A DNA stretch of 64,000 bases from Pseudomonadales bacterium (GCA_036960375.1 JBALVY010000001.1:576563-640562); one strand, 5' to 3'; shown: positions 1 through 30,753, counted from the first letter of the stretch. A program made the numbers and translations. The notes: generated from the sequence alone by a model not told the origin.

Positions 1-1257
1 TAGGGAAAGCCCGACCACAGCCCACACCGCCGCTACTGCGGCGCCCACAAGCGCGACTGCCCCCAGACCCAGCCCCAGGCCTTGTGTCAGGCCAGTAAAT
101 ATCCATGCGAACATGACATCGCCACCGCGATAGACTGCGATATCGATGACACTTTTTGCCTTGAACCGACTTTCGCGGTCGAGCTTGGTGAACAGCATTT
201 CACGACAGGGCCTAGTGATGGAGTAGTTGCCGGCCCGCCGCAAGATCTGCATGCCCACAACCACCCACAGCATGGGAGTGAGTGCTAGAAACATCATTGC
301 GATGGCGATAATAGCGGGCACTGAGGCGAGGGTCTTGGCTAGGCCGAAACGCGCGGTCAGTCGGCTGGTACCGAACCATGCAGTGACAATCGACAGGACA
401 TTGACCGCAAGGTCGATTCCCGCCCAGAACCGCACTCGGTCGGCGCTGGCCACGTCGGCCATCAGGTTTTTCAGCTCGAAGTAAATGAATGTATTGATGG
501 CAACATAGAGCAGGATAAACAGGCCGATACCCAGCAGGTACCGGCTCTTCAGGAAAAGCTCGAAGCCCGCCAGGGAGCTGCCGCCTATCGCGGTGTTCTG
601 GCTGTTGTGGTTGCCCTCGGGATTGCCGACCACACCGCGATTGCGCAATTGATTCATTCGCAGCACGATCACGACAGGTACGATTAGAAGGGTCGCGGAT
701 ATAATTAGAAGGTTCTTCTCGCCTACCCAGCCGACCAGGAATATCGCCATAGTCGGTCCTGCGATCGCACCGATGCTTGAACCCGAGCCGATGAAGGCGA
801 ATAAGCGCAAGGACTGCTCTCGTGAATAGGTGTCTGCCATGTAGGTCCAGAACACCGAGACATGAAACAAGCTGAATACGCTGATCCAGACATAGAATGC
901 CTTGCCCGCCAGCCCAATCTCTGCCGTATTGTCGAGCACTTTGTAGAACACAACGAACGATATGGCAAACAGTAAATAGATGCCCGGTACAATTCTGGAT
1001 GTGCGTATGCGCGAGCACGCTGCCCCATATAGCCAGACCGCGAACAAGCTGACAAAAAACGTGGCAGTCCACAAGGTGCTCAACTCGCTATCGGTCCAGT
1101 TGCTGGACATGGCATCGCGCACAGGCTTGAGCATGCTGTAAGAGGTCATTAAGGTAACGACAAAAGAGAACGATAACAGCACGGCTTGTAGTTCCTTTGG
1201 TTTGATCCTGGCTGTGCTTTCTACCAGATTGTTCAGGCTTGCACGGATGCGCGACAT
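1..1257 (-). CDS. MFS-type transporter, TLC/Npt1-like (tentative); C-terminus runs off the left edge, 419 codons visible
   Basis: Absent from the ORF track because no stop lies in the window. My manual minus-strand translation from ATG at 1257 stays open to base 1: MSRIRASLNNLVESTARIKPKELQAVLLSFSFVVTLMTSYSMLKPVRDAMSS..., with many hydrophobic spans. The Y-x-x-L-K-P-x-R-D motif after TM1 recalls the ATP/ADP-translocase-like MFS branch. The listed ORF 212..1072 is an off-frame shadow. Confidence 0.7.
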   Translation of the reverse strand, partial: MSRIRASLNNLVESTARIKPKELQAVLLSFSFVVTLMTSYSMLKPVRDAMSSNWTDSELSTLWTATFFVSLFAVWLYGAACSRIRTSRIVPGIYLLFAISFVVFYKVLDNTAEIGLAGKAFYVWISVFSLFHVSVFWTYMADTYSREQSLRLFAFIGSGSSIGAIAGPTMAIFLVGWVGEKNLLIISATLLIVPVVIVLRMNQLRNRGVVGNPEGNHNSQNTAIGGSSLAGFELFLKSRYLLGIGLFILLYVAINTFIYFELKNLMADVASADRVRFWAGIDLAVNVLSIVTAWFGTSRLTARFGLAKTLASVPAIIAIAMMFLALTPMLWVVVGMQILRRAGNYSITRPCREMLFTKLDRESRFKAKSVIDIAVYRGGDVMFAWIFTGLTQGLGLGLGAVALVGAAVAAVWAVVGLSL

Positions 1258-1302
1258 GTTAGAGTCCTGTTCGATTGGTCAGGGTGATGCAAGTGGCGGC
1301 GT

Positions 1303-2505
1303 TCATGCGTATCCGTCGATCAGTGTATCACCCGTTGGCACTTGCAGTAGCTTCTTACCTGCTAGCGCCATGCTGTTGTTGTAGTGAACAGATCCGTGGG
1401 TTGAGACAGTGCGGCAGTCGCGGAAGTGACGTTGTACCGGGTTGCGCCCTATCTGGCCGGTCACGCCCATCATGGCCGATAGATCGTGCACCGCGTCTCG
1501 GCATAGCCTAGCGACATAGGCCATCTGCTGACGCGAACGCAGGCGCTCGGTACCCTTGAGTTGCTCGTGTGCCATGCCGCGTTCATGCAGCATTGTACAT
1601 AGCTGGTCCGTCAGTAGTTCTGCCGTGGCAATGCGCACCTCGACCTCACCGACAGCGATCTGTACCGGCACCTGGTCGACAATGGTTTCACCGCGCATGG
1701 CGCCAACCCTGTCGATGGTTGAATCGAGATATTGCTCCAGGGCGCCGCGTGCTGTGCCCAGCAATGGGCCGGCCAGCAGGGTGCCAAAGTAGGAGGGCAT
1801 CTCGGTGTGGTAAATGTACTTGTCGTGGAGCTTGGACCCCGGAGGCTTCTGGCCGGAGAAGGATTTGTGATCGATAATCCGAGAGGCGGGAATGAACTGA
1901 TCCTTAACTACAACGTCATTGCTGCCGGTTCCTTTGAGTCCCTCGGCGACCCAGGTGTAGAGAATCTCGAACTCACCCGGCAGTAGCATAATATGGTGAG
2001 TAGGCATCCCCTTGTCCTTGGCTGACACCAGCACGCAGTCGGCGTGATCCACGCCACTGGCAAAACCCCACCTGCCGTTGGCAATGTAACCGCCATCTAC
2101 CGGTTCGAGCGAGCCACCACCGGCCGACGCCGTGGATATGATGGCATCCGGATGGTTCGGCCAGAATTCTTCCTGAGTCTCTGCGGGGAAGCGTGCCAGC
2201 ATCCAGGTGTGCGACAGCACGATGGAACTGATCCAGCCGGTTGATCCGCATCCGCGGGATATTTCGCGACTAACGTCTACGTGGGTGCCCCAATCCATCT
2301 CAAAGCCGCCGTAGCGACGTGGTGCGAATATTTTGTGCAATCCAGCCGCCTTCAGGTCTGCTATGGTTTCGTCTGGGATTTTACCCATGTCCTCGGTCGC
2401 GCTTGCACGTTCGCGCAATATTGGCACAAGGTTCTTGGCTGCAGTGACGAGTTCTTCTCGGCTTGGCACGTAACTAGGGGTTTGCTTCGATGCGCTTTTT
2501 AGCAT
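1303..2505 (-). CDS. Acyl-CoA-dehydrogenase-fold flavin-dependent monooxygenase, oxygenase component (HsaA / HpaH-C2 / DszC-like)
   Basis: 400 aa. RRYGGFEMDWGTHVDVSREISRGCGSTGWISSIVLSHTWMLARFPAETQEEFW and GRWGFASGVDHADCVLV are typical of group-D two-component monooxygenases rather than true ACADs. It lies 46 nt upstream of the MFS gene on the same strand. Confidence 0.8.
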   Translation of the reverse strand: MLKSASKQTPSYVPSREELVTAAKNLVPILRERASATEDMGKIPDETIADLKAAGLHKIFAPRRYGGFEMDWGTHVDVSREISRGCGSTGWISSIVLSHTWMLARFPAETQEEFWPNHPDAIISTASAGGGSLEPVDGGYIANGRWGFASGVDHADCVLVSAKDKGMPTHHIMLLPGEFEILYTWVAEGLKGTGSNDVVVKDQFIPASRIIDHKSFSGQKPPGSKLHDKYIYHTEMPSYFGTLLAGPLLGTARGALEQYLDSTIDRVGAMRGETIVDQVPVQIAVGEVEVRIATAELLTDQLCTMLHERGMAHEQLKGTERLRSRQQMAYVARLCRDAVHDLSAMMGVTGQIGRNPVQRHFRDCRTVSTHGSVHYNNSMALAGKKLLQVPTGDTLIDGYA

Positions 2506-5030: not shown

Positions 5031-6188
5031 GTGGATTTCAAATTACCTGAACAGACCCAAATGATTAAAGACACGGCGCGCCGCGTTGTGAATGAACACT
5101 TCATGCCGTTGGAGCAACAGCTGGCCGACCGGGAAAGTACCTATGAGGTCCCGCCTGAGGTCCATGCGAAACTCGCGACTACCCTCAAAGACTTGGGATT
5201 GTGGGCGCTGGAAGTGCCCGAGGAGCTAGGCGGTGCTGGTCTGGGTATCCTCGACCATTGTGCTGTCATGGAAGAAGCCTGGCGTTGCACCGCAGGCCGG
5301 CGCCTGTGGGTCTCGCTATTTTTTCCTGTTTTGAACCAGCTCGGCACCATCGATCAGAAAGAAAAATACCTGTATCCAAGTATCAGTGGTGCCATCCATG
5401 GGGCGTCGGCGTTTTCGGAGCCTGGCGCCGCCGGCGATCTGGCCGGAATCAGCACTACTGCCACGCAAGTGGCGGACGGCTGGCTGCTTAACGGTACCAA
5501 GTGTTGGATTACATACGCCGACACGGCTAGCTATGTATTGGTTCTGGCGCGCATGCCTGGTACTCGGCGTCACGACGGCATGACCTGGTTCGTGGTCGAC
5601 GCCAATTCGCCGGGTTTCGAGGTAACGCGTCGCCAGCAGATGATTCATGGCCACCCCACCTTTGAGCTGATGCTGAATGACTGCCTGCTGCCCCATGATG
5701 CTATTCTGGGCGAGCCCGGACAGGGTTTTGCCTCAGGTGCTAACGCCCTGTTCCGAGGTCGTATGACGATTTCAGCTCGCGCTCTGGGTAGCGCCGAGCG
5801 CTGCATGGAAATGATGGTCAGCTACGCCAACGAGCGCCATACTTTCGGCAAGCCCCTGGCCAGCCGGCAGGCGATCCAGTGGATGATTGCCGATTCTGCG
5901 CTAGAGTTACACAACCTGAGATCCATGCTGGTTCGCACCGCCTGGGATGCAGATCAGGGCAAGTCAATGCGAACCCAGACCGCTATGCTGAAACTGCAGG
6001 CTTCCGAAGTCGCTGGCCGCATCGCAGATCGAGCGGTGCAAATTCATGGTGCTGCAGGACTATCTACTGACATGGTGCTTGAGCGCATCTACCGAGATGT
6101 TCGTCCCATGCGTATCTACGAGGGGACATCCGAAGCGATGCGTAGCATGATCGCCAAGAATATTCTGGCGGGTGACCCATGGCAGTGA
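5031..6188 (+). CDS. Acyl-CoA dehydrogenase
   Basis: 385 aa. GTG start 2 nt after the upstream stop. Canonical ACAD layout with the C-terminal RIYEGTSEAMR catalytic-Glu motif. Confidence 0.9.
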   Translation: MDFKLPEQTQMIKDTARRVVNEHFMPLEQQLADRESTYEVPPEVHAKLATTLKDLGLWALEVPEELGGAGLGILDHCAVMEEAWRCTAGRRLWVSLFFPVLNQLGTIDQKEKYLYPSISGAIHGASAFSEPGAAGDLAGISTTATQVADGWLLNGTKCWITYADTASYVLVLARMPGTRRHDGMTWFVVDANSPGFEVTRRQQMIHGHPTFELMLNDCLLPHDAILGEPGQGFASGANALFRGRMTISARALGSAERCMEMMVSYANERHTFGKPLASRQAIQWMIADSALELHNLRSMLVRTAWDADQGKSMRTQTAMLKLQASEVAGRIADRAVQIHGAAGLSTDMVLERIYRDVRPMRIYEGTSEAMRSMIAKNILAGDPWQ

Positions 6189-7639
6189 ACGCGCAATCTA
6201 TCGCGGCGCAACTTTCCGCACTGCCACTGTCTATGACCATAGATGGTATTGCTGTCGCCGCCGCCAAACAGCTCGATGTTATTAACCCGTCTACTGCCAC
6301 GGTGCTTAGCACCGCGCCGGATGCCAGTCCTGCCGAGATCGACCTGGCGGTGGATGCCGCCGCTCGTGCTTATCCTGCCTGGTCCGGACTGCCGATGGCG
6401 ACCCGCCGGACCGCTATCATGGCGCTGGCCGATGCACTTGAGGCTAATCGCGATGAGCTTACGCTGATCAATTCGCTGGAGTGCGGTGCGCCACTGAAGG
6501 TGGCCCGCTCAGTGGATGTCGCAATTCGCTACCTCAGGACAATCGCCGCTTTCGAGTTGCCGGTAGAGATACTGCGAGAGGACGCTACCCAACGTATCGA
6601 ACTGATGCGGGTGTCACTAGGAGTCGTTGCAGCTATTACGCCCTGGAATGCCCCCCTAACCCTGGCAGCCGCAAAAATTGCCTCTGCGCTGCTTGTGGGC
6701 AACACTATGGTGTTGAAACCCTCGCCTTTCGCGCCGTTGGCGACCCTGCGGCTGGGACAATTGGCCAGTGAGATTTTCCCGGCTGGCGTGCTTAATGTGG
6801 TCAGCGGCGGCGCGGCGGCGGGGGAGTCGCTGACGGGTCACCCGGACGTTGCCAAAGTGTCTTTCACCGGTTCGGTAGAGGTTGGTAAGCACATTATGTC
6901 CGCCGCCAGCGGTGGGCTGAAGCGTCTTACCCTCGAGCTTGGAGGCAATGACGCCGCAATCGTCCTGTCCGATACCGATCCCGTGGTAGCGGCGGCGGGT
7001 ATCGCTCGCATCGCTTTCTCTAATTGCGGTCAGTTCTGCATGGCGATCAAGCGCGTCTACGTCGAGCGACCGGTGGCCGAGGCCCTGTGTGATGCCCTGG
7101 TCAGGGAAGTATCGGCGAAGCGACTGGGTTCGGCCCTCGATCCAGGCACCGATATCGGCCCGGTGCAAAATGAACAGCAGTACCTGCGTCTGCAGGCCCT
7201 GCTTGAGGACACAAAAGCAGCCGGTGGCCGGTTTCTACTGGGCGGCGGAATTGGCGAGGTTTCTACAGGAGGCGGCTATTACATTTCGCCCGCTATTGTG
7301 ACCGGTCTCGATGAAACCGCTGAACTGGTGGCCAATGAGCAGTTTGGTCCCGTGCTGCCGGTGCTGGTAGTGGACTCCGCTGAGGAAGCTCTGGCGCGGG
7401 CCAATGCGAGCCGGTTCGGGCTGGGTGGCTCCGTTTGGGGCGCTGATGTGGCAAGGGCCACCGCCCTGGCGAGGCAGATGCAAGTGGGCACTGCTTGGGT
7501 AAATCAGCACGGCGCTCTGGACGCGGCGGTACCCATGAACGGGTGCAAAGAATCGGGCCTGGGTATTGAATATGGCATTGATGGTTTAAAGGGCTACACC
7601 GCACCCCGGGTGGTCAATATTCTGAAAACTACGAGATAA
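6179..7639 (+). CDS. NAD(P)+-dependent aldehyde dehydrogenase
   Basis: 486 aa. ALDH motifs LELGGND and FSNCGQFCMA (catalytic Cys). The start overlaps the ACAD stop (ATGGCAGTGA). Confidence 0.9.
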   Translation: MAVNAQSIAAQLSALPLSMTIDGIAVAAAKQLDVINPSTATVLSTAPDASPAEIDLAVDAAARAYPAWSGLPMATRRTAIMALADALEANRDELTLINSLECGAPLKVARSVDVAIRYLRTIAAFELPVEILREDATQRIELMRVSLGVVAAITPWNAPLTLAAAKIASALLVGNTMVLKPSPFAPLATLRLGQLASEIFPAGVLNVVSGGAAAGESLTGHPDVAKVSFTGSVEVGKHIMSAASGGLKRLTLELGGNDAAIVLSDTDPVVAAAGIARIAFSNCGQFCMAIKRVYVERPVAEALCDALVREVSAKRLGSALDPGTDIGPVQNEQQYLRLQALLEDTKAAGGRFLLGGGIGEVSTGGGYYISPAIVTGLDETAELVANEQFGPVLPVLVVDSAEEALARANASRFGLGGSVWGADVARATALARQMQVGTAWVNQHGALDAAVPMNGCKESGLGIEYGIDGLKGYTAPRVVNILKTTR

Positions 7640-7659: not shown

Positions 7660-8028
7660 ATGACGGCGACAAACACAGCAGCAACACAGCGGCGGGTGGT
7701 CAAGGACAAGCCTGCTCATTTTTTCGACAGCCCTGAGACGGACATCCTTATGTCTATGGTGCTGGCCCTGGCGGGTGAGCTTTCGGTAGTGCGCGAGCGA
7801 CTCGATACCCACGAAAGGTTGAGCCAGTCCCAGGGCGGTTTCGACCCGGATGCGGTTAATCGTTATAAGCCGGATGCCGAGGTTGTGGCGCAGCGCAGCG
7901 CTGCGCGTAATAAGTATCTGAAACGCGTTCTTAGGGAAGCGCTGAACGAGGTGAGTAGAGCCAGTGACACGGACCCGCTTCTGTCCGGTGAAGCGCTGGC
8001 CGACATACTGACAGGACAAGGAAAATGA
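7660..8028 (+). CDS. Small predicted alpha-helical protein S1, family not recognised; paralog of 10417..10740
   Basis: 122 aa. It aligns without gaps to S2 over about 78 residues, roughly one third identical, sharing V-x-R-[ED]-R-L-D-T-x-E-x-L and P-D-x-E...Y. Its stop overlaps the start of the downstream methyltransferase (ATGA at 8025-8028). Confidence 0.6.
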   Translation: MTATNTAATQRRVVKDKPAHFFDSPETDILMSMVLALAGELSVVRERLDTHERLSQSQGGFDPDAVNRYKPDAEVVAQRSAARNKYLKRVLREALNEVSRASDTDPLLSGEALADILTGQGK

Positions 8029-10416: not shown

Positions 10417-10740
10417 ATGTCTGACACAGAAACAAAAGTAAAACTCGCTCGGGTAGCCCGAGGCAAACGCCCCGCGTATCTGGATGACAGGGCGATCGAT
10501 AACCTCTATGCCATTGTGGTCACCATGATGCAGGAAAATGTGGTGTTGCGGGACCGCTTAGATACACTGGAACTGCTGCTTGAGCGGCAGGGTGTTGTGT
10601 TACAGCAGCAAATAGAAACGTTCGTGCCAGACAAAGAGGCAGCCGACTCTCGCGAGCAGCGCAACAGGTCCTATATCGAGAAGTTGTTTCGCTGCCTGCA
10701 GGATGACCGCCAGCAGTTTGACGACAAGGTACAGGCATAA
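10417..10740 (+). CDS. Small predicted alpha-helical protein S2, paralog of S1
   Basis: 107 aa from ATG 10417 (MSDTETKVKLARV...), 1 nt after the MT2 stop (TAA c ATG). The track ORF 10375..10740 is an upstream extension into MT2. Confidence 0.6.
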   Translation: MSDTETKVKLARVARGKRPAYLDDRAIDNLYAIVVTMMQENVVLRDRLDTLELLLERQGVVLQQQIETFVPDKEAADSREQRNRSYIEKLFRCLQDDRQQFDDKVQA

Positions 10741-17898: not shown

Positions 17899-18078
17899 AG
17901 TGTTTACCCGATAATGGATGGTTGAGGAGGCAACAAAAACATAAAGATAAACACATTTTGCGAGTACACCAACATGCCCGCGATGTGGGCTGCTTTTAAT
18001 CGCAAATTTATTGGAGAATACTCGCACTTGAAACGTGATCCACCAATTCTTGGCGCGCAGCATAGGAAACATATACTA

Positions 18079-22304: not shown

Positions 22305-23099
22305 ATGAGGAAGGCCTACGTCGATATCCCTCAGGGGCAGCTTCATTACCTGACAGAGGGCACCGGTATTCCGCTGGTACTTTGTCACCAGTCCCCCAAC
22401 TGTTCTCGCATGTTCACCGCTGCAATTCCTTTGCTTGCTGAGGCGGGCTTCAGGGTGCTGGCATTTGATACTCCCGGGCATGGGGAGTCCAGTCCGCTGC
22501 AGCACGAACCTTCGATTCCAGATTATGCGCGGGCGTTGCTGTCGGGCCTCGATGCGCTGGAGCTAGAACATTTTCATCTGCTGGGCCACCATACCGGCGC
22601 AGCGATAGCCGCAGAGATGGCCGTTAGCGCGGCGGGGCGGGTCGACTCGCTGATACTGAATGGCCCGCCATTGTTTTCACCGGATACACGCGCCCAGCGC
22701 CGCTTGAAGGATCCCCTGCGCATTGTGCCGACAGAGGGCGGGCAGCACTTGTTGACCTTGTGGGAGTTGCGCAAGCGGGTGACGCCTGGTTGGTCTGACC
22801 TGAGGGTGATGCAGCGTGCCGTTGTCGATCTGCTGCGCTGCGGCAACCGGGTTCATCAGGGACACGCGGCGGTATACGACTACGATCTTGAACAGGCGCT
22901 GATGCAGCTGAACGTTCCCACGCTGATTTTGACCAACACCGGGGAAGACCTGTACCAGCATTCCCTTGCGACTTTTGCCCTGCGCCCCGACGCCTTTAAG
23001 CTCTCAGAACTACCCGGTGGTACCCACGACATTGTCGATGAACAGCCGGTGGCCTGGTCACATGCAGTGGCCTCGTTCGTTGCGCAGGTGGTTGGCTGA
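22305..23099 (+). CDS. Alpha/beta-hydrolase-fold protein, paralog of 17071..17898
   Basis: 264 aa. It shows the same deviations as its paralog: LVLCHQSPNCS and LLGHHTGAAIA. A C-terminal GGTHD is present. Confidence 0.8.
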   Translation: MRKAYVDIPQGQLHYLTEGTGIPLVLCHQSPNCSRMFTAAIPLLAEAGFRVLAFDTPGHGESSPLQHEPSIPDYARALLSGLDALELEHFHLLGHHTGAAIAAEMAVSAAGRVDSLILNGPPLFSPDTRAQRRLKDPLRIVPTEGGQHLLTLWELRKRVTPGWSDLRVMQRAVVDLLRCGNRVHQGHAAVYDYDLEQALMQLNVPTLILTNTGEDLYQHSLATFALRPDAFKLSELPGGTHDIVDEQPVAWSHAVASFVAQVVG

Positions 23100-23199: not shown

Positions 23200-25470
23200 A
23201 TGAATGCCCCTCTCAAAGGTATCAAAGTCCTCAATTGCGGCACCGCCGGTGTGGGTCCCTGGGCAGCCACACTGCTGGGTTACCTTGGGGCAGAAGTCAT
23301 CAAGATTGAAAGGCCTAGCGGCGAAATGACCCGTCGAGCGTTTCCGCAACGCAACGGTGTAAGCACCGCCTTTCTCGCCCTCAATATCAACCAGACCCCA
23401 CTGTACCTGGATATGAAAGATCCAGATAACCGAGCGCAGTTCGAGCAGTTGGTCGCGGGAGCGGACGTCCTTATTGAGAACTATCGACCCGGCGTCGCCG
23501 AGCGTATCGGCATGGGTTACGAGTATGTCAGCCAAATAAATCCGCGATTAGTGATGGCCAGCAGCCCGGGCTGGGGGCACAGCGGCCCCATGCGCGATAC
23601 CGGCGCGGTTGACCCGCACCTACAGGCCTTCAGTGGTTTTGCCGGTCTTAATGGAGCCGAGGGTGACGACCCCGAGATGTTGCGTTATACCCATATCGAC
23701 CCGAACGGCTCGGTACACTTGGCCGCTCTCGTTATGCTTGGCCTGCTGCAGCGGCAGCGTACCGGCAAGGGAAGCTATGTGCGCAGCTCCCACCTTGCTA
23801 TGGCACTGTTTATGCAATCGACGCGTATTGCCGAGACTCTGACGACAGGCGAGCCGGTTCCCCGGCTCGGTAGCGCCTGCACATCCAGTGTACCCAATCA
23901 GTGTTTTCAGGCCCGTGACGGAGCCTGGTTTACTGTGGCGGTAGAGTCGCCTGAGCAGTGGCAGGGCTTTTGTGCGGCGATAGAGCGGTCGGAACTCGCA
24001 GAGGACGAACGATTTTGTACCAACGCGGCTCGGGTACAGAACCGCCGAGCACTGGTAGAGGACCTGCAGCGCTGGTTCGCGGGCCAGCCGGAGCGCTGGT
24101 GGATTACCCGGCTCGAAGCGTATGCCGTGCCCCACAGCCGGTTGCTTGAATTTGACGACCTGCGCTATCACCAGCAGATTGTGGAGAACGGCTATCTGGT
24201 CGAAGTGGAATCGGTCGCCGGCCCATTGACGCTGGGGGGGCTGCCCTGGCGATTCAGTCGCACGCCCGCCTCAATTGTCGCAGCGAAACCCGCCGGTGAT
24301 GCGTCTGGCATGGTCGCATTCACTGCCGATGGCGAAGCGCAGCCGGTCAAGGGCAATGCGGCTTCACCGGAGCTCCCACCTCTGGACGGGCTGAGGGTGA
24401 TCGACGCCTCCCAGGGCTACGCCGGTCCGCTGGTGGCCTTGCTGCTGGCGGAGGCCGGTGCCGAAGTGACGAAGCTGGAACCGTCCGCAGGAGACTGGAC
24501 TCGTACTCTACTGCCGACGACGGGCGAGGGGCGCAGTGCCGCGTTTGATGCGATGAACCGAAACAAGCTCTGCCTGTCGGTCGATAAGCTAAGTTCGGCG
24601 GACACTGCCCGGCTGGTGGAACAGGCCGATATTGTGATTAGCGATGATTCAGACCTGTTGGCCGCACTTGGGCTCGATACCGCGGTTCTAGCGGAGCAAA
24701 ATCCCGAAATGATTCACTTTGAATTAAGTGGCTTTGGCGAGCGTGGTCCAATGGCCGGCCACCCGGCGAGTGAGCTGGGAATACAGGGTATGACGGGTTA
24801 TCTGAGTGACCTTGGGCAGCCCGGCGGCGAGCCGGTGCGGGTGGGCGCGGATATTACCGGCACCTGTACTGCGGCTTTGTCATTTCTGGGCGTAACGGCA
24901 GCGCTTTACGAGCGAGCGGAGTCCGGCAAAGGGCAGTCGATTGCCGCCAGTATGCTGGGGGCCATGATGTGTATGCGCACCCTGCGCTGGGCCAACCACT
25001 GCCGCCCCGACGAATGGAAAGGTGGCGACTGCAATGGCAAAACTGATCAGCCCTGGCGTGGCTACCGGACCCGTGACGGTGTCATTTGGCCCACCATGGT
25101 GCCGGTGCGCGACGACCAACAGATTTTAGAAATATATCGGCAGTTGGGTATGTTTGATGAGGTATGCGACAAGGATATTTTCATGCAGCACGGGCGCGAC
25201 ACTGTCGGCCTGGGATTCAACGCTCAAGCGGTCAAGCCGGTCTGGGACAAGGCCCTTGGTCGACTGCCGACAGAACAGGTACTGCGGGTCTTCAATGAGC
25301 ATCGCGGTATCGCCGTGGAGTTTTCCGAGTTGCATCAACTTGTTAACCATCCCCAGGTGCAGGCACTGGATATTCTAGAGGGTGATGGTGCCGGCCGCTA
25401 TGTGCGTGCGCCATGGCATACGAGCTGGCAGCGCCCTCCACTTAAACAACCAATGGGAAATGACCAATGA
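23200..25470 (+). CDS. Double-domain class III CoA-transferase, paralog of 2722..5028
   Basis: 756 aa. LKGIKVLNCGTAGVGPWAATLLGYLGAEVIKIERPSGE, and a second half LDGLRVIDASQGYAGPLVALLLAEAGAEVTKLEPSAGD. HIDPNGS and VGADITGTCT are retained. By eye well over half of positions are identical to the first copy. Confidence 0.85.
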   Translation: MNAPLKGIKVLNCGTAGVGPWAATLLGYLGAEVIKIERPSGEMTRRAFPQRNGVSTAFLALNINQTPLYLDMKDPDNRAQFEQLVAGADVLIENYRPGVAERIGMGYEYVSQINPRLVMASSPGWGHSGPMRDTGAVDPHLQAFSGFAGLNGAEGDDPEMLRYTHIDPNGSVHLAALVMLGLLQRQRTGKGSYVRSSHLAMALFMQSTRIAETLTTGEPVPRLGSACTSSVPNQCFQARDGAWFTVAVESPEQWQGFCAAIERSELAEDERFCTNAARVQNRRALVEDLQRWFAGQPERWWITRLEAYAVPHSRLLEFDDLRYHQQIVENGYLVEVESVAGPLTLGGLPWRFSRTPASIVAAKPAGDASGMVAFTADGEAQPVKGNAASPELPPLDGLRVIDASQGYAGPLVALLLAEAGAEVTKLEPSAGDWTRTLLPTTGEGRSAAFDAMNRNKLCLSVDKLSSADTARLVEQADIVISDDSDLLAALGLDTAVLAEQNPEMIHFELSGFGERGPMAGHPASELGIQGMTGYLSDLGQPGGEPVRVGADITGTCTAALSFLGVTAALYERAESGKGQSIAASMLGAMMCMRTLRWANHCRPDEWKGGDCNGKTDQPWRGYRTRDGVIWPTMVPVRDDQQILEIYRQLGMFDEVCDKDIFMQHGRDTVGLGFNAQAVKPVWDKALGRLPTEQVLRVFNEHRGIAVEFSELHQLVNHPQVQALDILEGDGAGRYVRAPWHTSWQRPPLKQPMGNDQ

Positions 25471-26468
25471 CAAGTGCAGACAACTCTACGCAAGGCGCCC
25501 CCGGGACATTTGATGCAATCAGCTTTCGCGACGCCCTGGGGCAGTTTGCCACCGGCGTAACGATAATAACCGCGGTCGATGCAGACGGCACGCCGGTGGG
25601 TGTTACCGCCAACAGTTTCAATTCTGCTTCCCTGGACCCGCCTCTGGTTCTGTGGAGCCTTGGGCGACGCTCGGGCACCCTTAGCGCGTTCACCCAGGCG
25701 GAATATTTTGCTGTGCACATTCTTTCGGCGGATCAGATCGAACTTTCCAATCGGTTTGCTGCCCCCCGCAGCGACAAATTCGAGGGAATTGAAACAACAG
25801 AAGGTCTTGGCGGCGTGCCCTTGCTCGATGGTTGTGCCGCTCGTTTCGAATGCAAAACCGCCTACCAGTACGAGGGTGGCGACCATATTATTTTTGTCGG
25901 CGAGGTGCAGCGCTTTGAAAAGGCAGATACTCCCACGCTGCTGTATCACCAGGGCAAGTATGCCTTGTCGCATGCGCAGCAGGCGGTAGCACCGGGCACG
26001 CCGGGTGGAGAGGGCGTCGATCCGCCCGGAGGGTTTGTCGACGACTATCTCGCCTACCTCTTAATTAATGCCTCCCGAAGCTTCCTGACCCGCTTCAAGG
26101 ACTGCATTCTCTCTTCCGGCCTGGACATCATTGGCTGGAGAACACTGGCGCATCTTACTGATCAGGACGGCAGGATGGGCAAAACCATGTTAAGCAAGGG
26201 AGTGGCAGAGGATGCCGAGAGCATGCTCGAAGCGCATCGCCGGCTCGAGTCGGAAGGCCTTATCCGCCGCGACGTAGAGCCGCTGGACGAAGAACTTGCA
26301 AGGCCGATACACCTGACCGACCTCGGCAGGGAAACGGTGATCCCCATACTGGCCGCGGCTAAATCGCTTGAATCAGACGCCCTTGGTGGTCTGGAAACAG
26401 ATGACGAGATTCAGATTCTGAAAAATTCGTTGCGCCAGGTGGCGTCGCGTATGGCAGATGAGAAATAG
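25467..26468 (+). CDS. Flavin reductase (HpaC-like) fused to a C-terminal MarR-type winged-helix domain
   Basis: 333 aa. The N-terminal ~165 aa (FRDALGQFATGVTIITAVDADGTPVGVTANSFNSASLDPPLVLWSL...GDHIIFVGEV) form a flavin reductase domain. After a Pro/Gly linker comes a MarR-like segment (IIGWRTLAHLTDQDGRMGKTMLSKGVAEDAESMLEAHRRLESEGLIRRD). The start overlaps the CoA-transferase stop (ATGA). Confidence 0.8.
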   Translation: MTSADNSTQGAPGTFDAISFRDALGQFATGVTIITAVDADGTPVGVTANSFNSASLDPPLVLWSLGRRSGTLSAFTQAEYFAVHILSADQIELSNRFAAPRSDKFEGIETTEGLGGVPLLDGCAARFECKTAYQYEGGDHIIFVGEVQRFEKADTPTLLYHQGKYALSHAQQAVAPGTPGGEGVDPPGGFVDDYLAYLLINASRSFLTRFKDCILSSGLDIIGWRTLAHLTDQDGRMGKTMLSKGVAEDAESMLEAHRRLESEGLIRRDVEPLDEELARPIHLTDLGRETVIPILAAAKSLESDALGGLETDDEIQILKNSLRQVASRMADEK

Positions 26469-26518: not shown

Positions 26519-27316
26519 CTATGGTTTACTGAATTTCAACACGGCGCGGGAAGTTTTACCGCGATAGGCGGGCATCATTGCCATGCCCTTTAGGTCGTCC
26601 TCGGTATTGAGTAATACGTCACTCTCAGATTCGAACACAAAGCCCGCTGCCAAAAAATCTCGCTTGATCAGTTCCGGATCGATCCGGTGTAGCTTCGGTA
26701 CCACGGCGGGGTCGGCGTCGGCTTGTGCTATATGGTCTATTACGCCGACTGTTCCGCCTGCACGCGTCGCTGCAAATACCTGTGCCAGCATGGCTGGGCG
26801 ATCTACTTTTTCCCAGCCGCGAAACCCATCAATGTAATAAATGTCATGGTAGGCAAGGCTGAACAGCACCACATCGAACGCGTCTGTCGGCAGTATTAAT
26901 GCGTTATTGGGGGCTATCAATACCTCGACGTTGTTGAGGCGATCATCTCCATAGCGGATGGCGCGCTCTTCGGCGGTCATCCCGGCGTACACGGTATTGT
27001 TGTGTGCGACCACCCGGCCCTTTTCACCTACTGTGTAGGACAGCATCTCAGTGTAGTAACCACCGCCCGAGTACATATCCAGTACGCTCTGGCCGGGTTG
27101 AATAGAGAAGAACTGCAAGATATCTGCAGGTTTGCGCTGAGTATCGCGCACCGTGTCCTTTTCCGGACGATTCGGATTCGTGACAGCGGCGGTGATGATC
27201 TCAGCTTGTGATGTGGCGGGCGGCACGTCGGCTGTAGCGGCGCAGGAAATTAACGTGGCGCAGGCTGCCAGCTGCACTATGTGATTTTTGAGGGCGAAAC
27301 GGCGAAGGTTTAACAT
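26519..27316 (-). CDS. Exported (lipoprotein-signal) class I methyltransferase-fold protein
   Basis: 265 aa. N-terminus MLNLRRFALKNHIVQLAACATLISCAAT contains lipobox-like LAAC and LISC. VLDMYSGGGYYTE resembles methyltransferase motif I. Confidence 0.75.
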   Translation of the reverse strand: MLNLRRFALKNHIVQLAACATLISCAATADVPPATSQAEIITAAVTNPNRPEKDTVRDTQRKPADILQFFSIQPGQSVLDMYSGGGYYTEMLSYTVGEKGRVVAHNNTVYAGMTAEERAIRYGDDRLNNVEVLIAPNNALILPTDAFDVVLFSLAYHDIYYIDGFRGWEKVDRPAMLAQVFAATRAGGTVGVIDHIAQADADPAVVPKLHRIDPELIKRDFLAAGFVFESESDVLLNTEDDLKGMAMMPAYRGKTSRAVLKFSKP

Positions 27317-27332: not shown

Positions 27333-28190
27333 TTAGTTCAGGAACAGGTTCCAAAGGTTTAATCGGTTGGGGTCATAAGCAGTAAAGGTTTTGCCTATCG
27401 TGTCGTCGTCCGCCAGTGATGCTACCACTAGCTGCGCTAGGTCCTTGCGTCCCATGTAACTGAAGGACTCGGCGTCTTCCGTAAGTCGGGCTGTGCCCGT
27501 TGTTGGCCCTTTTGATAGGCCGCCGGGACGAATAATAGTGTAGTCGAGGCCGCTTAGCCTAAGGTGGTCCTCTGCTTTCTCTTTCAACGGAATCACTTCC
27601 TGATGCCCGCGGCGCGCCATCGGCGGCAGGCCTTCCCAGGACTTGCCAGGTCCGATGACGGTCACCAACAACATGCGCTCTACTCCCGCATTCTTGGCTG
27701 TGTCAATGATGTTGCGATTGCCAATGAAGTCGGGACGCTTATTAGGGTCCATTTTGGTCTGACCCTCGATCAGCGAGCTGATGAAATTCTTGCGGGTGGG
27801 GAGGTCCTTGGAGGACGTTCCCAAGGTTGAGATAACCGCATCGAACTTAGCTGAATTCATGATCGCAGCTAACTCGTCCTGCTTCATAGCGTCGCCCACG
27901 GCTTTGCGGATACCCAGTTCATCCAGAGCGGCAGTATTGGAAGTCGGGCGCACCAGCGCAGTCACTTCAACGCCCTGGGACTGAAGAACCCGCACAATTT
28001 CCAGGCCGGTACCTCTAGTACCGCCGACAACCAGCACCCTGCGTGTTTCAAGCGGGGTCGGGCTAAGGCTTTGGAACGAATCAGGTGTGTGGTAGATACC
28101 GCTCATCATAGCTACGTATGCCGCGGCAATCAGGAATAGGCCGAGCGATAGGAATAGGATGGTTTTACCTAGAATTTTTAACAGCCACAT
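27333..28190 (-). CDS. Membrane-anchored NAD(P)-binding Rossmann-fold protein (NmrA-like), paralog of 20727..21545
   Basis: 285 aa. N-terminal TM helix ILGKTILFLSLGLFLIAAAYVAMM, then VLVVGGTRGTGLEIVRVL. Confidence 0.75.
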   Translation of the reverse strand: MWLLKILGKTILFLSLGLFLIAAAYVAMMSGIYHTPDSFQSLSPTPLETRRVLVVGGTRGTGLEIVRVLQSQGVEVTALVRPTSNTAALDELGIRKAVGDAMKQDELAAIMNSAKFDAVISTLGTSSKDLPTRKNFISSLIEGQTKMDPNKRPDFIGNRNIIDTAKNAGVERMLLVTVIGPGKSWEGLPPMARRGHQEVIPLKEKAEDHLRLSGLDYTIIRPGGLSKGPTTGTARLTEDAESFSYMGRKDLAQLVVASLADDDTIGKTFTAYDPNRLNLWNLFLN

Positions 28191-28462
28191 TATTCTTTTC
28201 TCCGTGTGGGAGGCGTCGTAAGGGAAAGTTCGATCGCCTTTGCAGATTCTGTAAGAACGGCCAAATATTGGTCGTTGGCCATGAAACTAACAATAAGCCC
28301 GCATGGTGGTCTCGTTGACCCGATAGCCCCGGTTGCAGGTACCATACCGCCACGGTCTAGTTGATACAAAATATTTGAAGATCGAATTCATGGAAACCTG
28401 TGATGTGCTGGTTGTTGGCGCAGGGCCCGTTGGAACTATTGAATAGAGAAGGGGAGTTAAAT

Positions 28463-29209
28463 ATGACTGATGTACGTGGCTGGAGAGCCAAGTTCGGTGT
28501 CTTGGGGCCGTCAACCAATACTATTGTGCAGCCCGATTTTGACGACTTGCGCCTGCCTGGTGTGACCAACCATTACAGTCGCATTGTGGTGCAGAATGCC
28601 AATGCTATGTCCGATGAGACCTTCATGGCCGGTACCCAGGAAATTTCCACGCATACACTGGAAGCCGTGCGTGGTGTGCTCACTTGTGCGCCGGACTATC
28701 TAGTTATGGGTATGTCGGCGGTGACCTTCTATGGCGGCGCCGAAGGCGCGGCCGAGTGGAAGAAGAACGTGGTGGACAACGCCGGGCTGGATATTTCCAT
28801 TGGCTCGGAGTCGCTAGTGGCTGCCATCGAGGCTTATGGTGGGATTAAACGGGTGGCATTTCTGTCGCCGTACTTTCCTGTTGCCAACGCCGAAGTAGCC
28901 AACTATCTCTCGGATTTTGGTATTGAGACTGTGCGCGATGTTTGCCTGCGCTGTCCTAGCTGGACCTCCATTGCCGAGGTTGCCGAGGATACACTGGTTG
29001 ACACTGTGGCATCGCTGGACGGCGACGATGTCGACGCAATCCTGCAGGTAGGCACCAACCTGTCCATGCTAAGCCTGGCGGGCAAGCTGGAAAAACAGCT
29101 AGCCAAGCCGGTGATCGCGATTAATGCAGCCACCTACTGGCACGCGCTTCGCGCGAATAATATTACCGACAAAATTTCGGGCTTTGGCCGCCTGCTTGAG
29201 GAGTTCTAG
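28463..29209 (+). CDS. Asp/Glu/hydantoin-racemase superfamily protein (maleate isomerase / arylmalonate decarboxylase-like)
   Basis: 248 aa from ATG 28463 (RBS GAAGGGGAG). GVLGPSTNTIVQPDF, LVMGMSAVTFYGG, VAFLSPYF and ILQVGTNLSM match the two-lobed layout of this family. Confidence 0.75.
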   Translation: MTDVRGWRAKFGVLGPSTNTIVQPDFDDLRLPGVTNHYSRIVVQNANAMSDETFMAGTQEISTHTLEAVRGVLTCAPDYLVMGMSAVTFYGGAEGAAEWKKNVVDNAGLDISIGSESLVAAIEAYGGIKRVAFLSPYFPVANAEVANYLSDFGIETVRDVCLRCPSWTSIAEVAEDTLVDTVASLDGDDVDAILQVGTNLSMLSLAGKLEKQLAKPVIAINAATYWHALRANNITDKISGFGRLLEEF

Positions 29210-29210
29210 T

Positions 29211-30125
29211 ATGGATTATCCCTATGTACCAATCTGTGACAGAGGGCCGCTGTCATTTCCTGATGGCAAACGGGTTGCGCTTATTATGACGTTCAATCTA
29301 GAGACCTGGGACCTGGTAAAGGAAACCGATCAACCTTATTACGCCGGTGGCCCGGCGATTCTGCCCAATACGTTGCCGGGGAACATTCCCGATTATCCAA
29401 ACTACTCATGGCGGGAGTACGGCCAGCGGGTGGGCATCTGGCGCCTGTACGAGCTTTTCGACAGCCTGGGTGTGGCCGCCAGTTGCACCACCAACGCGGT
29501 GACGTTTGAGCGCCGCAATCCGATGGTGAAGGCCTGTCTCGATCGCGGCTGGGAACTGCTTGCACATAATTATGAGCAGGGTGAATTACTAACAGACTAC
29601 GCTCATGACCCGGAGCGGGAGCGGGCAGTGATCGACAAAACGATCGATATCTATACCCGGCATGTGGGGCGCAAGCCTTTGGGGTGGTTGTCGTCATCCT
29701 TGCGGGGCACACTCAATACCGCTGCGATCCTCGCAGAGCGCGGCTTTCTGTTTTACTGCGACATTATGAATGATGACCAGCCATACATGATCGATACCGA
29801 GGCAGGCCAGATTGTTTCCATTCCCTACTCAAATGAAATCAACGATTTCACCATTCTCACCCGAAGTAATCATACTACCGACCAGTACCGAGACATTCTG
29901 ATTGAGGAGCTCGATGTGCTCTACCAGGAAGGTGCGACCAGTGGCCGTATTATGAATGTGGGTTTGCACCCGCATGTGAGCGGGCGCGCCTATCGCGTGA
30001 GAGCCGTTCGAGAGTTTATTGAGCATGCCAAGAGCCTGGACGGGGTCTGGTGGACGACGCGCGAAGAGCTGGCGCGCTGGTATCTTGAAAATAGACAAGG
30101 TCATATGGATGCCTCCAATGCATAA
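29211..30125 (+). CDS. Polysaccharide-deacetylase-fold hydrolase, PuuE (allantoinase)-like
   Basis: 304 aa from ATG 29211, 1 nt after the upstream stop. It is collinear with my recollection of PuuE: YGQRVGIWRLYELF, RKPLGWL, GFLFYCDIMNDDQPYM, SIPYSNEINDF, VGLHPHVSGRAYRVRAVREFIEHAK. Confidence 0.8.
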   Translation: MDYPYVPICDRGPLSFPDGKRVALIMTFNLETWDLVKETDQPYYAGGPAILPNTLPGNIPDYPNYSWREYGQRVGIWRLYELFDSLGVAASCTTNAVTFERRNPMVKACLDRGWELLAHNYEQGELLTDYAHDPERERAVIDKTIDIYTRHVGRKPLGWLSSSLRGTLNTAAILAERGFLFYCDIMNDDQPYMIDTEAGQIVSIPYSNEINDFTILTRSNHTTDQYRDILIEELDVLYQEGATSGRIMNVGLHPHVSGRAYRVRAVREFIEHAKSLDGVWWTTREELARWYLENRQGHMDASNA

Positions 30126-30753
30126 AAGTACCCGAAGGAATTTTTTGGTCTTCGTGGGTATCATGTTGCTGGGGCTGATACCCAGCGAGATCTACTTGTT
30201 GTCAGCGGGGTTCAGTGACGACAGTCTGAATATGGTGCTGCGGCAAACGGCCCGCTCCAGTCTCTTGTTCTTTTTGCTGGCCTTTGTTGCCACGCCATTG
30301 CGTCAACTCGTGGATCTTCCTGTGGCTCGCTGGTTAGTGCGTCACCGGCGTTCGCTGGGCCTCGCGTTTGGCGGTATGCAGAGCGCGCACCTCCTGTTAA
30401 TCGCCTGTCGGTACGCGGCGATTCCCGGCGTAGATTTAAATCCGATAGTGGGGACCATTGGTGGCACAGCCTATCTGCTGATGTACCTGATGGTTGTTAC
30501 TTCCTTCAACGCGCCGCGGCGGTTTATAAGCGCAGTGGCTTGGCAGCGCCTGCACAAGGTGGGGCTGTACTATAACGGATTTCTCTTTTTGGCCATGCTA
30601 CCACCGGGCGCAGATGAGCAGTTGCTGAACCCTGGCCGTGCTGTACTGATCGTACTGACGACCATCGCCGTGTTAGTCCGGGTGGCAGAGTTCGCGAGTC
30701 ACTGGCGTAAATCCAGAACGGCAAAGCAACGTGCGGTAGGCGAATCCTTGTGA
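30109..30753 (+). CDS. Ferric-reductase-like transmembrane protein (MsrQ/YedZ-like)
   Basis: About 214 aa with 5-6 TM segments. Conserved-looking His residues in RRSLGLAFGGMQSAHLLLI and AWQRLHKVGLYYNGF. The start is uncertain (ATG 30109 or 30118); both overlap the upstream gene end. Confidence 0.5.
   Translation: MPPMHKSTRRNFLVFVGIMLLGLIPSEIYLLSAGFSDDSLNMVLRQTARSSLLFFLLAFVATPLRQLVDLPVARWLVRHRRSLGLAFGGMQSAHLLLIACRYAAIPGVDLNPIVGTIGGTAYLLMYLMVVTSFNAPRRFISAVAWQRLHKVGLYYNGFLFLAMLPPGADEQLLNPGRAVLIVLTTIAVLVRVAEFASHWRKSRTAKQRAVGESL

Follow-up and report, generated by a model that had tools for sequence, protein, structure and literature searches.

Gene content and boundaries of the block

The 64,000-nucleotide stretch of DNA analyzed here (GCA_036960375.1, JBALVY010000001.1:576563-640562; hereafter called the window) belongs to a marine Pseudomonadales metagenome-assembled genome. 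Positions 1-30753 hold most of a GC-rich block of ~28 genes and ~35 kb, of which ~4.4 kb lie outside the left end of the window. This remainder is seen on a second assembly (GCA_036961145.1; locus L019) that is 99.98% identical across window 1-12505 and reaches 8.7 kb further left. The MT1 and CoA-T1 proteins introduced below match NCBI proteins encoded on a 1.07-Mb contig with 100% identity. An earlier note had described the region as an orphan catabolic cluster in which nearly every function occurs as a diverged pair, and had suggested that it may be horizontally acquired. We find that the cluster is a conserved, mobile, single-operator regulon, and that the terms "orphan" and "horizontally acquired" both hold.

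Genes were mapped using Pfam and NCBIfam scans covering all open reading frames (ORFs), and their coordinates are collected in Table 1. Uptake and catabolic-type genes occur together: a glycoside-pentoside-hexuronide (GPH) symporter of the major facilitator superfamily (MFS), aldehyde dehydrogenases (ALDHs), an acyl-CoA dehydrogenase (ACAD), CoA-transferases (CoA-Ts), and hydroxylases. They are joined by two methyltransferases (MT1 and MT2), each with a small partner protein, and by two α/β-fold proteins (ABH1 and ABH2). One further candidate, ORF 212-1072(-), was rejected as an out-of-frame artifact lying over the MFS_1 gene at 1-1257(-); its GC content at third codon positions (GC3) is 0.43.

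The block is compositionally foreign in this genome. Its GC content is 0.567 (1-30753) versus 0.492 for the remaining window, and GC3 is 0.638 (sd 0.022, 25 genes) inside versus 0.501 (sd 0.064, 25 genes) outside (Mann-Whitney p=1.2e-8), with the right-hand step at ~30.75-31.0 kb. The GC contrast drawn in the earlier note therefore stands as a discontinuity, but its spot values were too high at the top end. On L019, the sequence to the left is still GC-rich through the MFS_1 gene, an ABM-domain gene, and an EntS-like MFS_3 gene. Between the block and the core genes gltD and gltB lie genes for a HipA_C protein (610 aa), an 82-aa ORF, and a Fic-domain protein (L019 15098-18029; GC3 0.34-0.53), and toxin-antitoxin-type genes therefore mark the left edge of the island. 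The composition of gltD and gltB (GC ~0.50, GC3 0.49-0.52) matches that of window 31-61 kb. This is therefore the host baseline, from which the ~35-kb block departs as an outlier.

On the other side (window 30842-33930), copA and then copB directly follow the block, with copA encoding a multicopper oxidase that carries four Met/His-rich "MDHSxHQMSEKPA" repeats. A tRNA-Leu(CAG) gene at 33844-33930(-), the sole match in an Rfam scan, is located past copAB, 3 kb outside the right edge of the block. A CopB gene and a 108-aa ORF are also inserted in a second copy of the block (L017, 18377-19075; see below) between the MFS_2 and IclR genes. Thus, copper-resistance genes adjoin the block in two genomes. 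Scans for sigma-70 promoters and terminators gave counts at or below shuffle expectation.

A shared palindrome and conservation of the block as a unit

Side-by-side comparison of the intergenic regions revealed an imperfect 15-bp palindrome, GCCCRC-N3-GYGGGC, in five of those within the block. Within the window, CCRCNNNGYGGGCT is matched exactly at six sites versus 0.20 expected; all are intergenic, all fall in the block, and none of 100 shuffles reached six. The full consensus is G(C/A)CCRC-AAT-GYGGGCT. This motif recurs at orthologous positions in loci L001, L002, L009, L017, and L019, and it was found in none of 14 unrelated loci. Eight transcription units share this one putative palindromic operator. 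We view the block as one regulon because the palindrome spans five intergenic regions and recurs at orthologous sites. The only regulator in the block is an IclR-family protein (HTH_IclR 51.7 bits and IclR_C 34.7 bits, both above cut-offs; PRK09834, MhpR type, 165 bits), which presumably binds the palindrome. The operator site at the ABH1-IclR transcription unit predicts autoregulation.

Two palindromic matches with one mismatch each also lie 56 bp apart at window 49100-49172, inside a VIT-VWA gene (47384-49474). This gene and the sortase gene behind it form a locally GC-richer stretch (0.55).

The whole gene set is kept in three other metagenomic contigs. In TARA scaffold_452 (L001, L009) and ZHEN22 scaffold_1343 (L017), the same genes occur in the same order, pairs included, with 51-86% amino acid identity. 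The MFS_1-oxygenase pair is at the opposite end of the block in the TARA copy, whose flanks carry a sigma-54 two-component system and AstE, and an isochorismatase gene lies upstream in L017. The methyltransferase-fold gene at 26519-27316(-) gave no tblastn match in the TARA copy L009 and is the sole block gene missing there. Because of its signal peptide, the encoded protein should be periplasmic, where SAM (S-adenosylmethionine) is not expected. A 397-aa FAD_binding_3 gene is found nearby in the TARA copy in its place. The terminal membrane protein shares 54% identity with its TARA ortholog.

In the TARA and ZHEN22 contigs, the flanks have the same GC content as the block (0.55-0.60), which makes those lineages plausible relatives of the donor. 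Searching 185,579 GTDB species representatives with MT1 yielded distant methyltransferase matches only and no copy of the block. These occurrences, together with the GC of ~0.50 in gltBD beside the block, uphold the proposal of horizontal acquisition. By its compositional break, its differing flanks, and its patchy occurrence, the block is a genomic island. Likewise, the shared motif and the conservation as a unit bear out the view that this is one coherent cluster.

A more distant, alphaproteobacterial locus (L101) carries a related core. Within 20 kb are homologs of the IclR regulator (40% identity), a CoA-T (47%) directly before the ACAD (63%), an NAD_binding_10 protein (40%), and the PhyH protein (49%). 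The locus also has a methyltransferase with a small protein and an α/β-fold protein with a GHHGG elbow; identities to block proteins overall are 26-63%.

Table 1. Genes and putative operator sites of the block, in window coordinates
Feature	Coordinates	Strand	Basis and remarks
MFS_1 transporter, partial	1..1257	-	First 419 of 442 codons, 3' end off window start; full gene with Pfam MFS_1 on L019; GC3 0.69
ACAD-fold flavin-dependent oxygenase component (HsaA/C2-HpaH-like)	1303..2505	-	Pfam Acyl-CoA_dh_2/N; NCBIfam and PDB matches
Two operator sites	2603-2616 (-), 2641-2654 (+)		Between divergent oxygenase gene and CoA-T1 operon; exact CCRCNNNGYGGGCT; kept in L017, L019
CoA-T1, fused tandem class III CoA-transferase, 768 aa	2722..5028	+	PF02515 501.6 bits, two stretches
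Acyl-CoA dehydrogenase, canonical, IYEGTSE motif	5031..6188	+	Pfam ACAD N/M/C domains
ALDH1	6179..7639	+	PF00171 450 bits; overlaps ACAD stop
Small helical protein 1, 122 aa, upstream partner of MT1	7660..8028	+	No Pfam/NCBIfam match; stop overlaps MT1 start
MT1, class I SAM methyltransferase with ~190-aa N-terminal helical domain	8025..9218	+	Pfam Methyltransf_25/11, residues 206-305
MT2, family of MT1, another subclade	9282..10415	+	39% identity to MT1; neighbor-joining (NJ) tree
Small helical protein 2, 107 aa, downstream partner of MT2	10417..10740	+	107-aa call on L019; aligns with small-protein family
ALDH2, 499 aa, most like phenylacetaldehyde dehydrogenase StyD	10766..12265	+	PF00171 521 bits; start from L019 gene call
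Group A FAD monooxygenase, kynurenine-3-monooxygenase-like	12346..13632	-	PF01494
Operator site	13708-13721	+	Between FAD monooxygenase and PhyH genes
PhyH-family Fe/2-oxoglutarate dioxygenase	13791..14630	+	PF05721 92.6 bits; WHND... HxD motif
MFS_2, GPH-type cation symporter	14670..16079	+	PF13347 290 bits; TIGR00792 220 bits
IclR-family regulator, MhpR/PcaR-like	16156..16962	-	HTH_IclR + IclR_C; 3' of ABH1, one transcription unit with ABH1
ABH1, α/β-fold with GHHTG elbow	17071..17901	-	Pfam Abhydrolase_1; TARA ortholog 270 aa
Operator site	17978-17991	+	Between ABH1-IclR unit and TonB receptor operon
TonB-dependent outer-membrane receptor	18079..20709	+	Plug and β-barrel; TIGR01783 160 bits, below cut-off
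NAD_binding_10 protein, Sec-type signal peptide, periplasmic	20727..21545	+	Pfam; N-terminus by eye
Flavin_Reduct-fold protein, twin-arginine signal RRQALS, periplasmic	21538..22230	+	PF01613 81 bits; N-terminus by eye
ABH2, α/β-fold with GHHTG elbow	22305..23099	+	Pfam; AlphaFold2 (AF2) model
Operator site	23113-23126	+	Upstream of CoA-T2; relaxed match at orthologous TARA site by eye
CoA-T2, fused tandem class III CoA-transferase, 756 aa	23200..25470	+	PF02515 532 bits
Flavin reductase, C-terminal regulatory domain, C1-HpaH-like	25467..26468	+	PF01613 147 bits; translationally coupled to CoA-T2
Methyltransferase-fold protein with signal peptide, accessory	26519..27316	-	Weak PCMT/UbiE matches; N-terminus by eye
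NAD_binding_10 protein, N-terminal membrane anchor	27333..28190	-	Pfam; 40% identity to L101 homolog
Operator site	28296-28309	-	Between NAD_binding_10 gene and Amdase-like operon
Asp/Glu-racemase-superfamily protein (maleate isomerase/arylmalonate decarboxylase/EutA-like)	28460..29209	+	PF17645 62 bits
PuuE-allantoinase-like polysaccharide-deacetylase-fold amidohydrolase	29208..30125	+	TIGR03212 149 bits, below cut-off
Multi-pass membrane protein, ferric-reductase-like (YedZ/MsrQ-type)	30109..30753	+	Weak PF01794, 21.8 bits, below cut-off; last gene of the block

The rest of the window holds other clusters. A second IclR-headed cluster with host-like GC (36391-44246) encodes an MR_MLE dehydratase, an aldo/keto reductase, a short-chain dehydrogenase/reductase, a FAA-hydrolase-family protein, an MFS_1 transporter, a RhaM mutarotase, and an Amidohydro_2 protein. 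This gene content suggests a non-phosphorylative route for acids of deoxy-sugars of the fucose/rhamnose type. A third uptake/degradation cluster (50504-63843) comprises a zinc-dependent alcohol dehydrogenase, two enoyl-CoA hydratases, a luciferase-like monooxygenase, two ACADs, an AMP-ligase, MFS_2, DUF3089, and a TonB receptor whose GC3 (0.64) is unlike that of its neighbors. Genes for a DUF3089 homolog and MFS_2 are also found near the methyltransferase module of Novosphingobium resinovorum pSA1 (L100). An isolated TauD/TfdA-family dioxygenase gene with block-like GC3 (0.62) is present at 35120-35971 in low-GC surroundings.

Paralog pairs and the three central protein families

All seven diverged paralog pairs listed in the earlier note were recovered by all-versus-all BLASTP inside the window, with the Pfam families as named. 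CoA-T1 and CoA-T2 are 52.6% identical over their full length, and each chain consists of two CoA_transf_3 domains. Identities are lower for the methyltransferases (39.2%), the α/β-fold proteins (38.6%), the ALDHs (37.1%), the NAD_binding_10 proteins (29.9%), the small proteins (29%, E 3e-9), and the Flavin_Reduct proteins (21%, E 1e-5), where the likeness is one of fold only. Within the window, the best match of each within-block paralog is its partner.

Homology does not imply equivalence for two of these pairs. Inspection by eye assigns a Sec-type signal to the NAD_binding_10 protein at 20727 and a membrane anchor to that at 27333. Likewise, the Flavin_Reduct protein at 21538 seems to be Tat-exported, whereas the protein at 25467, which resembles C1-HpaH and carries a C-terminal regulatory domain, would be a cytosolic reductase. 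With one member of each predicted to be periplasmic, the NAD_binding_10 and flavin-reductase pairs do not appear to be equivalent copies or functional duplicates, and to this extent the claim of paired functions has to be qualified.

The histories of the pairs also differ. MT1 and MT2 fall in separate subclades of a large family in an NJ tree, and MT2 is 52% identical to stand-alone relatives versus 39% to MT1. The small gene is upstream for the MT1 type and downstream for the MT2 type, the latter as in stand-alone locus L008. ABH2 shares ~50% identity with many stand-alone proteins versus 38.6% with ABH1. CoA-T1 and CoA-T2 are sister clades, and this pair alone looks like an in-cluster duplication. 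The mirror layout, ALDH-small-MT followed by MT-small-ALDH, is kept in all block copies. Thus, the subclades, gene orders, and identities indicate that this layout is an assembly of two pre-existing module subtypes rather than a recent tandem duplication. The "systematic duplication" of the earlier note is consequently wrong for most pairs, and its reading of the pairs as two parallel branches is plausible.

Motif I of class I SAM methyltransferases is D/E-x-G-x-G-x-G. MT1 and MT2 retain it intact as ILDMGCTVG and ILDLGCAIG (Methyltransf_25, 76-82 bits), and an AF2 model of MT1 (pLDDT 90.5) confirmed the class I fold. Foldseek searches of the PDB with this model (TM ~0.4) and profile searches against the PDB returned generic class I methyltransferases only, with no clue to the N-terminal domain or the substrate. 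Members of the methyltransferase family are ~380 aa in size, and those of the small-partner family are ~110-125 aa. The latter share a conserved motif, GEVSVLRDRLDTHERL, and amount to 549 cluster representatives (50% identity clusters) at E<=1e-3. The small gene adjoins the methyltransferase gene in 36 of the 60 metagenome loci with room on both sides. The small proteins had no Pfam or NCBIfam match and no meaningful PDB sequence match. The small partner is a genuine protein family. Two candidate matches from the literature were discarded because their architectures differ: MddH, a UbiE-like thiol methyltransferase, and DsyG/DsyGD, in which the methyltransferase domain is at residues 76-175.

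The earlier note called the α/β-fold proteins atypical, and this description was apt. Both ABH1 and ABH2 have GHHTG at the nucleophile elbow, and this sequence is invariant in 38 family members, as are H28 and H241; more distant members have GxHT[GS] or GHHGG. The AF2 model of ABH2 (pLDDT 96.1) has the canonical α/β-hydrolase fold, with Foldseek TM values of 0.77-0.82 to 3om8, DxnB2, an aryl esterase, and fluoroacetate dehalogenase, and its Foldseek neighbors are ordinary hydrolases only. The elbow (Sm-x-Nu-x-Sm) lacks a Ser, Cys, or Asp nucleophile. With His in its place, these proteins should not be filed as ordinary hydrolases or esterases.

Two observations touch on what these proteins might do instead. 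At L101 2788-6535, the GHHGG α/β-fold gene is grouped with a Glyoxalase_4 gene and with genes for a free-standing lipoyl-domain protein and a fused thiamine pyrophosphate-dependent E1, an arrangement similar to that of the acetoin dehydrogenase genes AcoABC. AcoC (PRK14875) is also among the top NCBIfam matches of the ABH proteins of the block. Together, these likenesses hint at an acyl-transfer role rather than a hydrolytic one.

Both CoA-Ts score far above the PF02515 cut-off of 23.3 bits (501.6 and 532 bits), in two stretches each. CoA-T1 has DPHLQAFSG in its N-terminal half and ELTAQAMTG in its C-terminal half. DPHLQAFSG is shared by both paralogs and most relatives. Across the family, the N-half motif is D[PS]HLQAFSG and the C-half motif is ELxxQAMTG, with Glu replacing Asp family-wide. 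The catalytic Asp of each domain is expected in the D-x3-(Q/A)A-x-SG segment, a placement that follows Frc and CaiB rather than a structural alignment. The nearest characterized relatives of the N-half are mesaconate, oxalate, glutarate, and formyl-CoA transferases.

These three families recur together with GPH-type MFS transporters in Alphaproteobacteria, in metagenomes, and on Novosphingobium and Sphingomonas plasmids, and thus in numerous bacteria of both sea and soil. In four metagenome loci, GxHTG α/β-fold genes directly adjoin a methyltransferase gene, and CoA_transf_3, MFS_2, TonB, FAD_binding_4, FGE-sulfatase, and hydantoinase genes are recurrently located near these loci. In abundant TARA contigs (L010-12), a GHHTG α/β-fold gene overlaps the end of the fused CoA-T gene. 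Among 72,556 plasmids, the methyltransferase was found in eight records (six Novosphingobium, Sphingomonas sp. JE1, and one Sphingobium), and all eight also encode the α/β-fold protein. The order MFS_2-small-MT recurs in pSA1 and in L018; for the high-GC pSA1 locus (L100), in which several crude ORFs lack Pfam matches, only homology-supported genes were used. The annotated region of plasmid pJE1 has the same kind of neighborhood, with genes for polysaccharide deacetylases, an isochorismatase, and a CaiB protein as well as for a TonB receptor and MFS transporters; a literature search found nothing on Sphingomonas sp. JE1. The methyltransferase and His-elbow families are multi-copy in sphingomonads. 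On pSA1 (NZ_CP017076.1) and other Novosphingobium megaplasmids, each occurs at up to six places per replicon.

The other enzymes resemble characterized proteins more distantly. The oxygenase at 1303..2505 scores 259 bits against NCBIfam HsaA (cut-off 450) and 208 bits against C2 (cut-off 650), and in the PDB it matches HsaA at 195 bits and C2 at 175 bits. The reductase at 25467..26468 matches the C1-type HphnlacHdxRed model at 237 bits over 4-307/309 (cut-off 340), including the effector-binding C-terminal domain, and the HsaB equivalog model at 134 bits (cut-off 230). These two proteins may function like the C1/C2-HsaAB type, with scores that fall short of the membership cut-offs. For the ACAD, the best NCBIfam models are AcrC (273 bits) and glutaryl-CoA dehydrogenase (205 bits), both below cut-offs, and CaiA is also among its matches. 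The nearest characterized relatives of the ALDHs are StyD, aminoaldehyde dehydrogenases, and betaine aldehyde dehydrogenase, with ALDH2 reaching 495 bits against StyD (cut-off 850) and also resembling HpaE.

The best solved relative of the FAD monooxygenase is kynurenine-3-monooxygenase (KMO; 112 bits, E 5e-31), and its best NCBIfam model is VioC (89 bits versus a cut-off of 760). Neither kynureninase nor tryptophan 2,3-dioxygenase is present in the block. The PhyH protein has MysH as its closest solved relative (104 bits, E 7e-29). In the PDB, the protein at 28460-29209 matches maleate isomerase (47 bits) and arylmalonate decarboxylase (AMDase; 35 bits), and that at 29208-30125 matches PuuE (125 bits).

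Proposed function and comparison with known systems

"Catabolic" is the best reading of the block. We favor, with moderate confidence, a ~35-kb horizontally acquired, IclR-controlled regulon for the uptake of an exogenous organic acid, or of two related ones, and for processing in an "upper pathway"; aromatic compounds that are phenolic or contain nitrogen are the most likely substrates. This reading is based on the TonB receptor, the two importer-type MFS proteins, and the MhpR-like regulator, and on the fact that no biosynthetic enzyme that forms a scaffold is encoded. The substrate would cross the outer membrane through the TonB receptor, meet the Sec-exported NAD(P)-binding-fold and Tat-exported flavin-reductase-fold proteins in the periplasm, and enter the cell via the GPH-type MFS_2 and/or MFS_1. 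There, the two ALDHs could convert aldehydes to carboxylates. These carboxylates or their precursors might be methylated by the two subtypes of MT/small-protein module. The two fused CoA-Ts would form CoA thioesters for processing by the single ACAD, the PhyH-type dioxygenase, and the His-elbow α/β-fold proteins. The C1/C2-type two-component monooxygenase and the KMO-like FAD monooxygenase could hydroxylate a ring, and the PuuE-like amidohydrolase and maleate-isomerase-like protein may act on ring-derived amide or ene-dioate fragments. The pairs would represent two parallel lines built from already diverged family members rather than from recent duplication.

Several points weigh against this reading. 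No block protein reaches an NCBIfam equivalog cut-off, and the scans revealed no ring-cleavage dioxygenase, enoyl-CoA hydratase, or thiolase among the block genes. Therefore, products would have to be finished by core metabolism, and the block alone would not achieve mineralization. Two SAM-consuming methyltransferases are unusual in a catabolic route, and an EntS-like MFS_3 exporter gene and an ABM-domain gene lie at the left edge of the block. Signal peptides and catalytic motifs were assigned by eye rather than with a dedicated predictor, and the pairing of the IclR protein with the palindrome derives from their co-occurrence. With regard to mobility, no integrase was found among the called genes; repeats of the att type between the tRNA-Leu gene and the island edges were chance 11-14-mers only, with no tRNA-derived repeat at the edges to indicate direct tRNA insertion.

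One extension of the catabolic reading would make methylation a defining feature. The MT/small module, the His-elbow α/β-fold protein, and the fused Asp/Glu CoA-T could be the core of a widespread, undescribed marine and sphingomonad route, usually accompanied by a GPH-type MFS, an ACAD, and a PhyH protein, in which SAM methylation is integral to the processing of imported acids. We consider this proposal tentative and unlikely. In one version of such a route, a polycarboxylate would be protected transiently as the methyl ester of one carboxyl during CoA activation of the other. In another, a thioether or amine would be converted to an onium group, which then leaves in a CoA-assisted elimination. 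The His-elbow protein would then be a non-hydrolytic catalyst of acyl or methyl transfer or of elimination, not an esterase.

The methyltransferases, which are least expected in catabolism, also keep alive an alternative in which the block makes or tailors a product. Two ring hydroxylases and two O- or C-methyltransferases would decorate an aromatic acid stepwise, by the logic of ubiquinone or phenylpropanoid tailoring, with the ALDH and CoA enzymes acting on a side chain. The resulting methoxylated quinone, phenol, or chelator would leave the cell through the EntS-like MFS, return via the TonB receptor, and be acted on by the periplasmic and membrane redox proteins. Both methyltransferases are indeed intact, the hydroxylases are of UbiH/KMO and HsaA types, the exporter and ABM-domain genes are in place at the left edge, the best subfamily match of the TonB receptor is of the siderophore type (160 bits, below cut-off), and the flavin-reductase-fold, NAD(P)-binding-fold, and ferric-reductase-like proteins would suit redox chemistry on a product. 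We regard this alternative as unlikely, given that block scans revealed no NRPS, PKS, NIS synthetase, chorismate-utilizing enzyme, or prenyltransferase, and that the regulator is of the MhpR/PcaR catabolic type. Furthermore, GPH-type importers and TonB receptors recur beside the methyltransferase module in contexts that are otherwise unrelated, and the shared operator is an IclR-style palindrome, with no Fur-box-like control seen.

A known pathway in disguise is quite unlikely and, for the whole block, largely refuted. Candidates are DddD-type cleavage of dimethylsulfoniopropionate (DMSP) with acrylate/3-hydroxypropionate metabolism, Cai-type carnitine/crotonobetaine metabolism, 4-hydroxyphenylacetate/homoprotocatechuate degradation, and pyridine-carboxylate (nicotinate/homarine/trigonelline-like) degradation. 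Each finds an echo: the fused tandem class III architecture of the CoA-Ts is that of DddD; the ACAD matches include the acryloyl-CoA reductase AcrC and CaiA; the oxygenase and reductase resemble C1/C2 HpaH, and ALDH2 resembles StyD and HpaE; and the FAD monooxygenase, α/β-fold, maleate-isomerase-like, and PuuE-like proteins recall NicC/NicD/NicE-type steps, with the L017 isochorismatase gene upstream. All NCBIfam equivalog scores are nevertheless far below their cut-offs, no source names any of the best 120 CoA-T homologs DddD, and scans of the block revealed no BCCT transporter, CaiC/CaiD, HpaD/extradiol dioxygenase, NicX, or NicAB. None of the candidates uses two methyltransferases. The homarine operon homABCDER encodes HomA (FAD-binding)/HomB, the peptidase HomC, the ALDH-like HomD, and HomR, with no CoA-T, methyltransferase, or ACAD (PMC13236597). 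This different gene set excludes it, a comparison made by gene content only. MddH, DsyG, and mycosporine-like amino acid biosynthesis do not match either, and the gene set thus maps onto none of the pathways compared, in line with the earlier note, which could not place it on any familiar pathway.

A chance mosaic of unrelated operons in a GC-rich stretch, with pairs that mirror the abundance of ALDH, MFS, α/β-hydrolase, ACAD, and NAD(P)-binding families (ACADs, MFS_2, a TonB receptor, and IclR are encoded elsewhere in the window too, and the flavin-reductase pair is only 21% identical), is highly improbable and, unless the motif is a non-regulatory repeat, refuted by the operator in five intergenic regions and by the conservation of the set in three other contigs, as well as opposed by the uniform GC3 of all 25 genes (sd 0.022), the recurrence of the core in an alphaproteobacterium, and the mutual best matches of the paralogs.

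Marine heterotrophs consume a large pool of dissolved organic matter, and the degradation genes involved are mostly unknown. As a regulon, the block has clear limits. Its unit structure and core genes are met again in Gamma- and Alphaproteobacteria, and the families that compose it are found on the megaplasmids of cultivable sphingomonads. As an IclR-controlled catabolic island, it is a familiar kind of object, but its central enzymology is uncharacterized and widespread: the three central families have no characterized member, one α/β-fold family has an invariant histidine where a catalytic nucleophile is expected, and the methyltransferase is accompanied by a separate helical partner, which it may require. 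Once the substrate is named, thousands of metagenomic genes could be annotated, and a catabolic strategy that depends on methylation might come to light. With its operator defined, the IclR regulator offers a direct experimental handle.

Among known systems, BioC/BioH is comparable by analogy only. BioC is among the best NCBIfam matches of the class I methyltransferases of the block (54-56 bits, far below cut-offs), and the methyltransferase family recurrently neighbors an α/β-fold family whose annotation in some sources is "pimeloyl-ACP methyl ester carboxylesterase," so that a "protect and deprotect" scheme might be imagined. However, the block α/β-fold proteins have His at the position of the catalytic Ser of BioH, and the methyltransferases carry an extra 190-aa helical domain and are accompanied by a separate small partner.

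The CoA-Ts resemble class III enzymes (CaiB/BaiF/Frc), among them the heteromeric BbsEF and the fused DddD. PF02515 occurs twice per chain, which would make the interlocked dimer a single polypeptide, and the N-half appears to retain the Asp of D-x3-QAxSG. CoA-T1 precedes the ACAD gene as BbsEF precedes BbsG and as CaiA accompanies CaiB. They differ in the family-wide Glu of the C-half, and no characterized member falls in the equivalog range. Of DddD, the block proteins share the fused tandem architecture only.

The C1/C2 p-hydroxyphenylacetate 3-hydroxylase (Acinetobacter type) and HsaAB likewise combine an ACAD-fold oxygenase with a PF01613 reductase. In the block, the two genes are 23 kb apart, and each is coupled to a different CoA-T gene. 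MysH, of palythine-type mycosporine-like amino acid biosynthesis, shares the HxD...H iron triad with the PhyH protein, but similarity is moderate and the context lacks mysA-D genes, which excludes this biosynthesis as a pathway match. We found no paper on the catabolism of mycosporine-like amino acids.

The closest overall parallel is with IclR-regulated aromatic-acid clusters (mhp, pca/pob, and hpa). In contrast to these, the block has no ring-cleavage dioxygenase, hydratase-aldolase, or thiolase, and its α/β-fold proteins lack a Ser/Asp nucleophile. As in those systems, an MhpR/PcaR-like IclR gene lies beside divergent operons with a palindromic operator, together with genes for a group A FAD monooxygenase, an α/β-fold protein, an ALDH, and an MFS transporter. 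To this familiar framework, the block adds two MT/small modules, two fused CoA-Ts, a PhyH dioxygenase, and periplasmic redox proteins.

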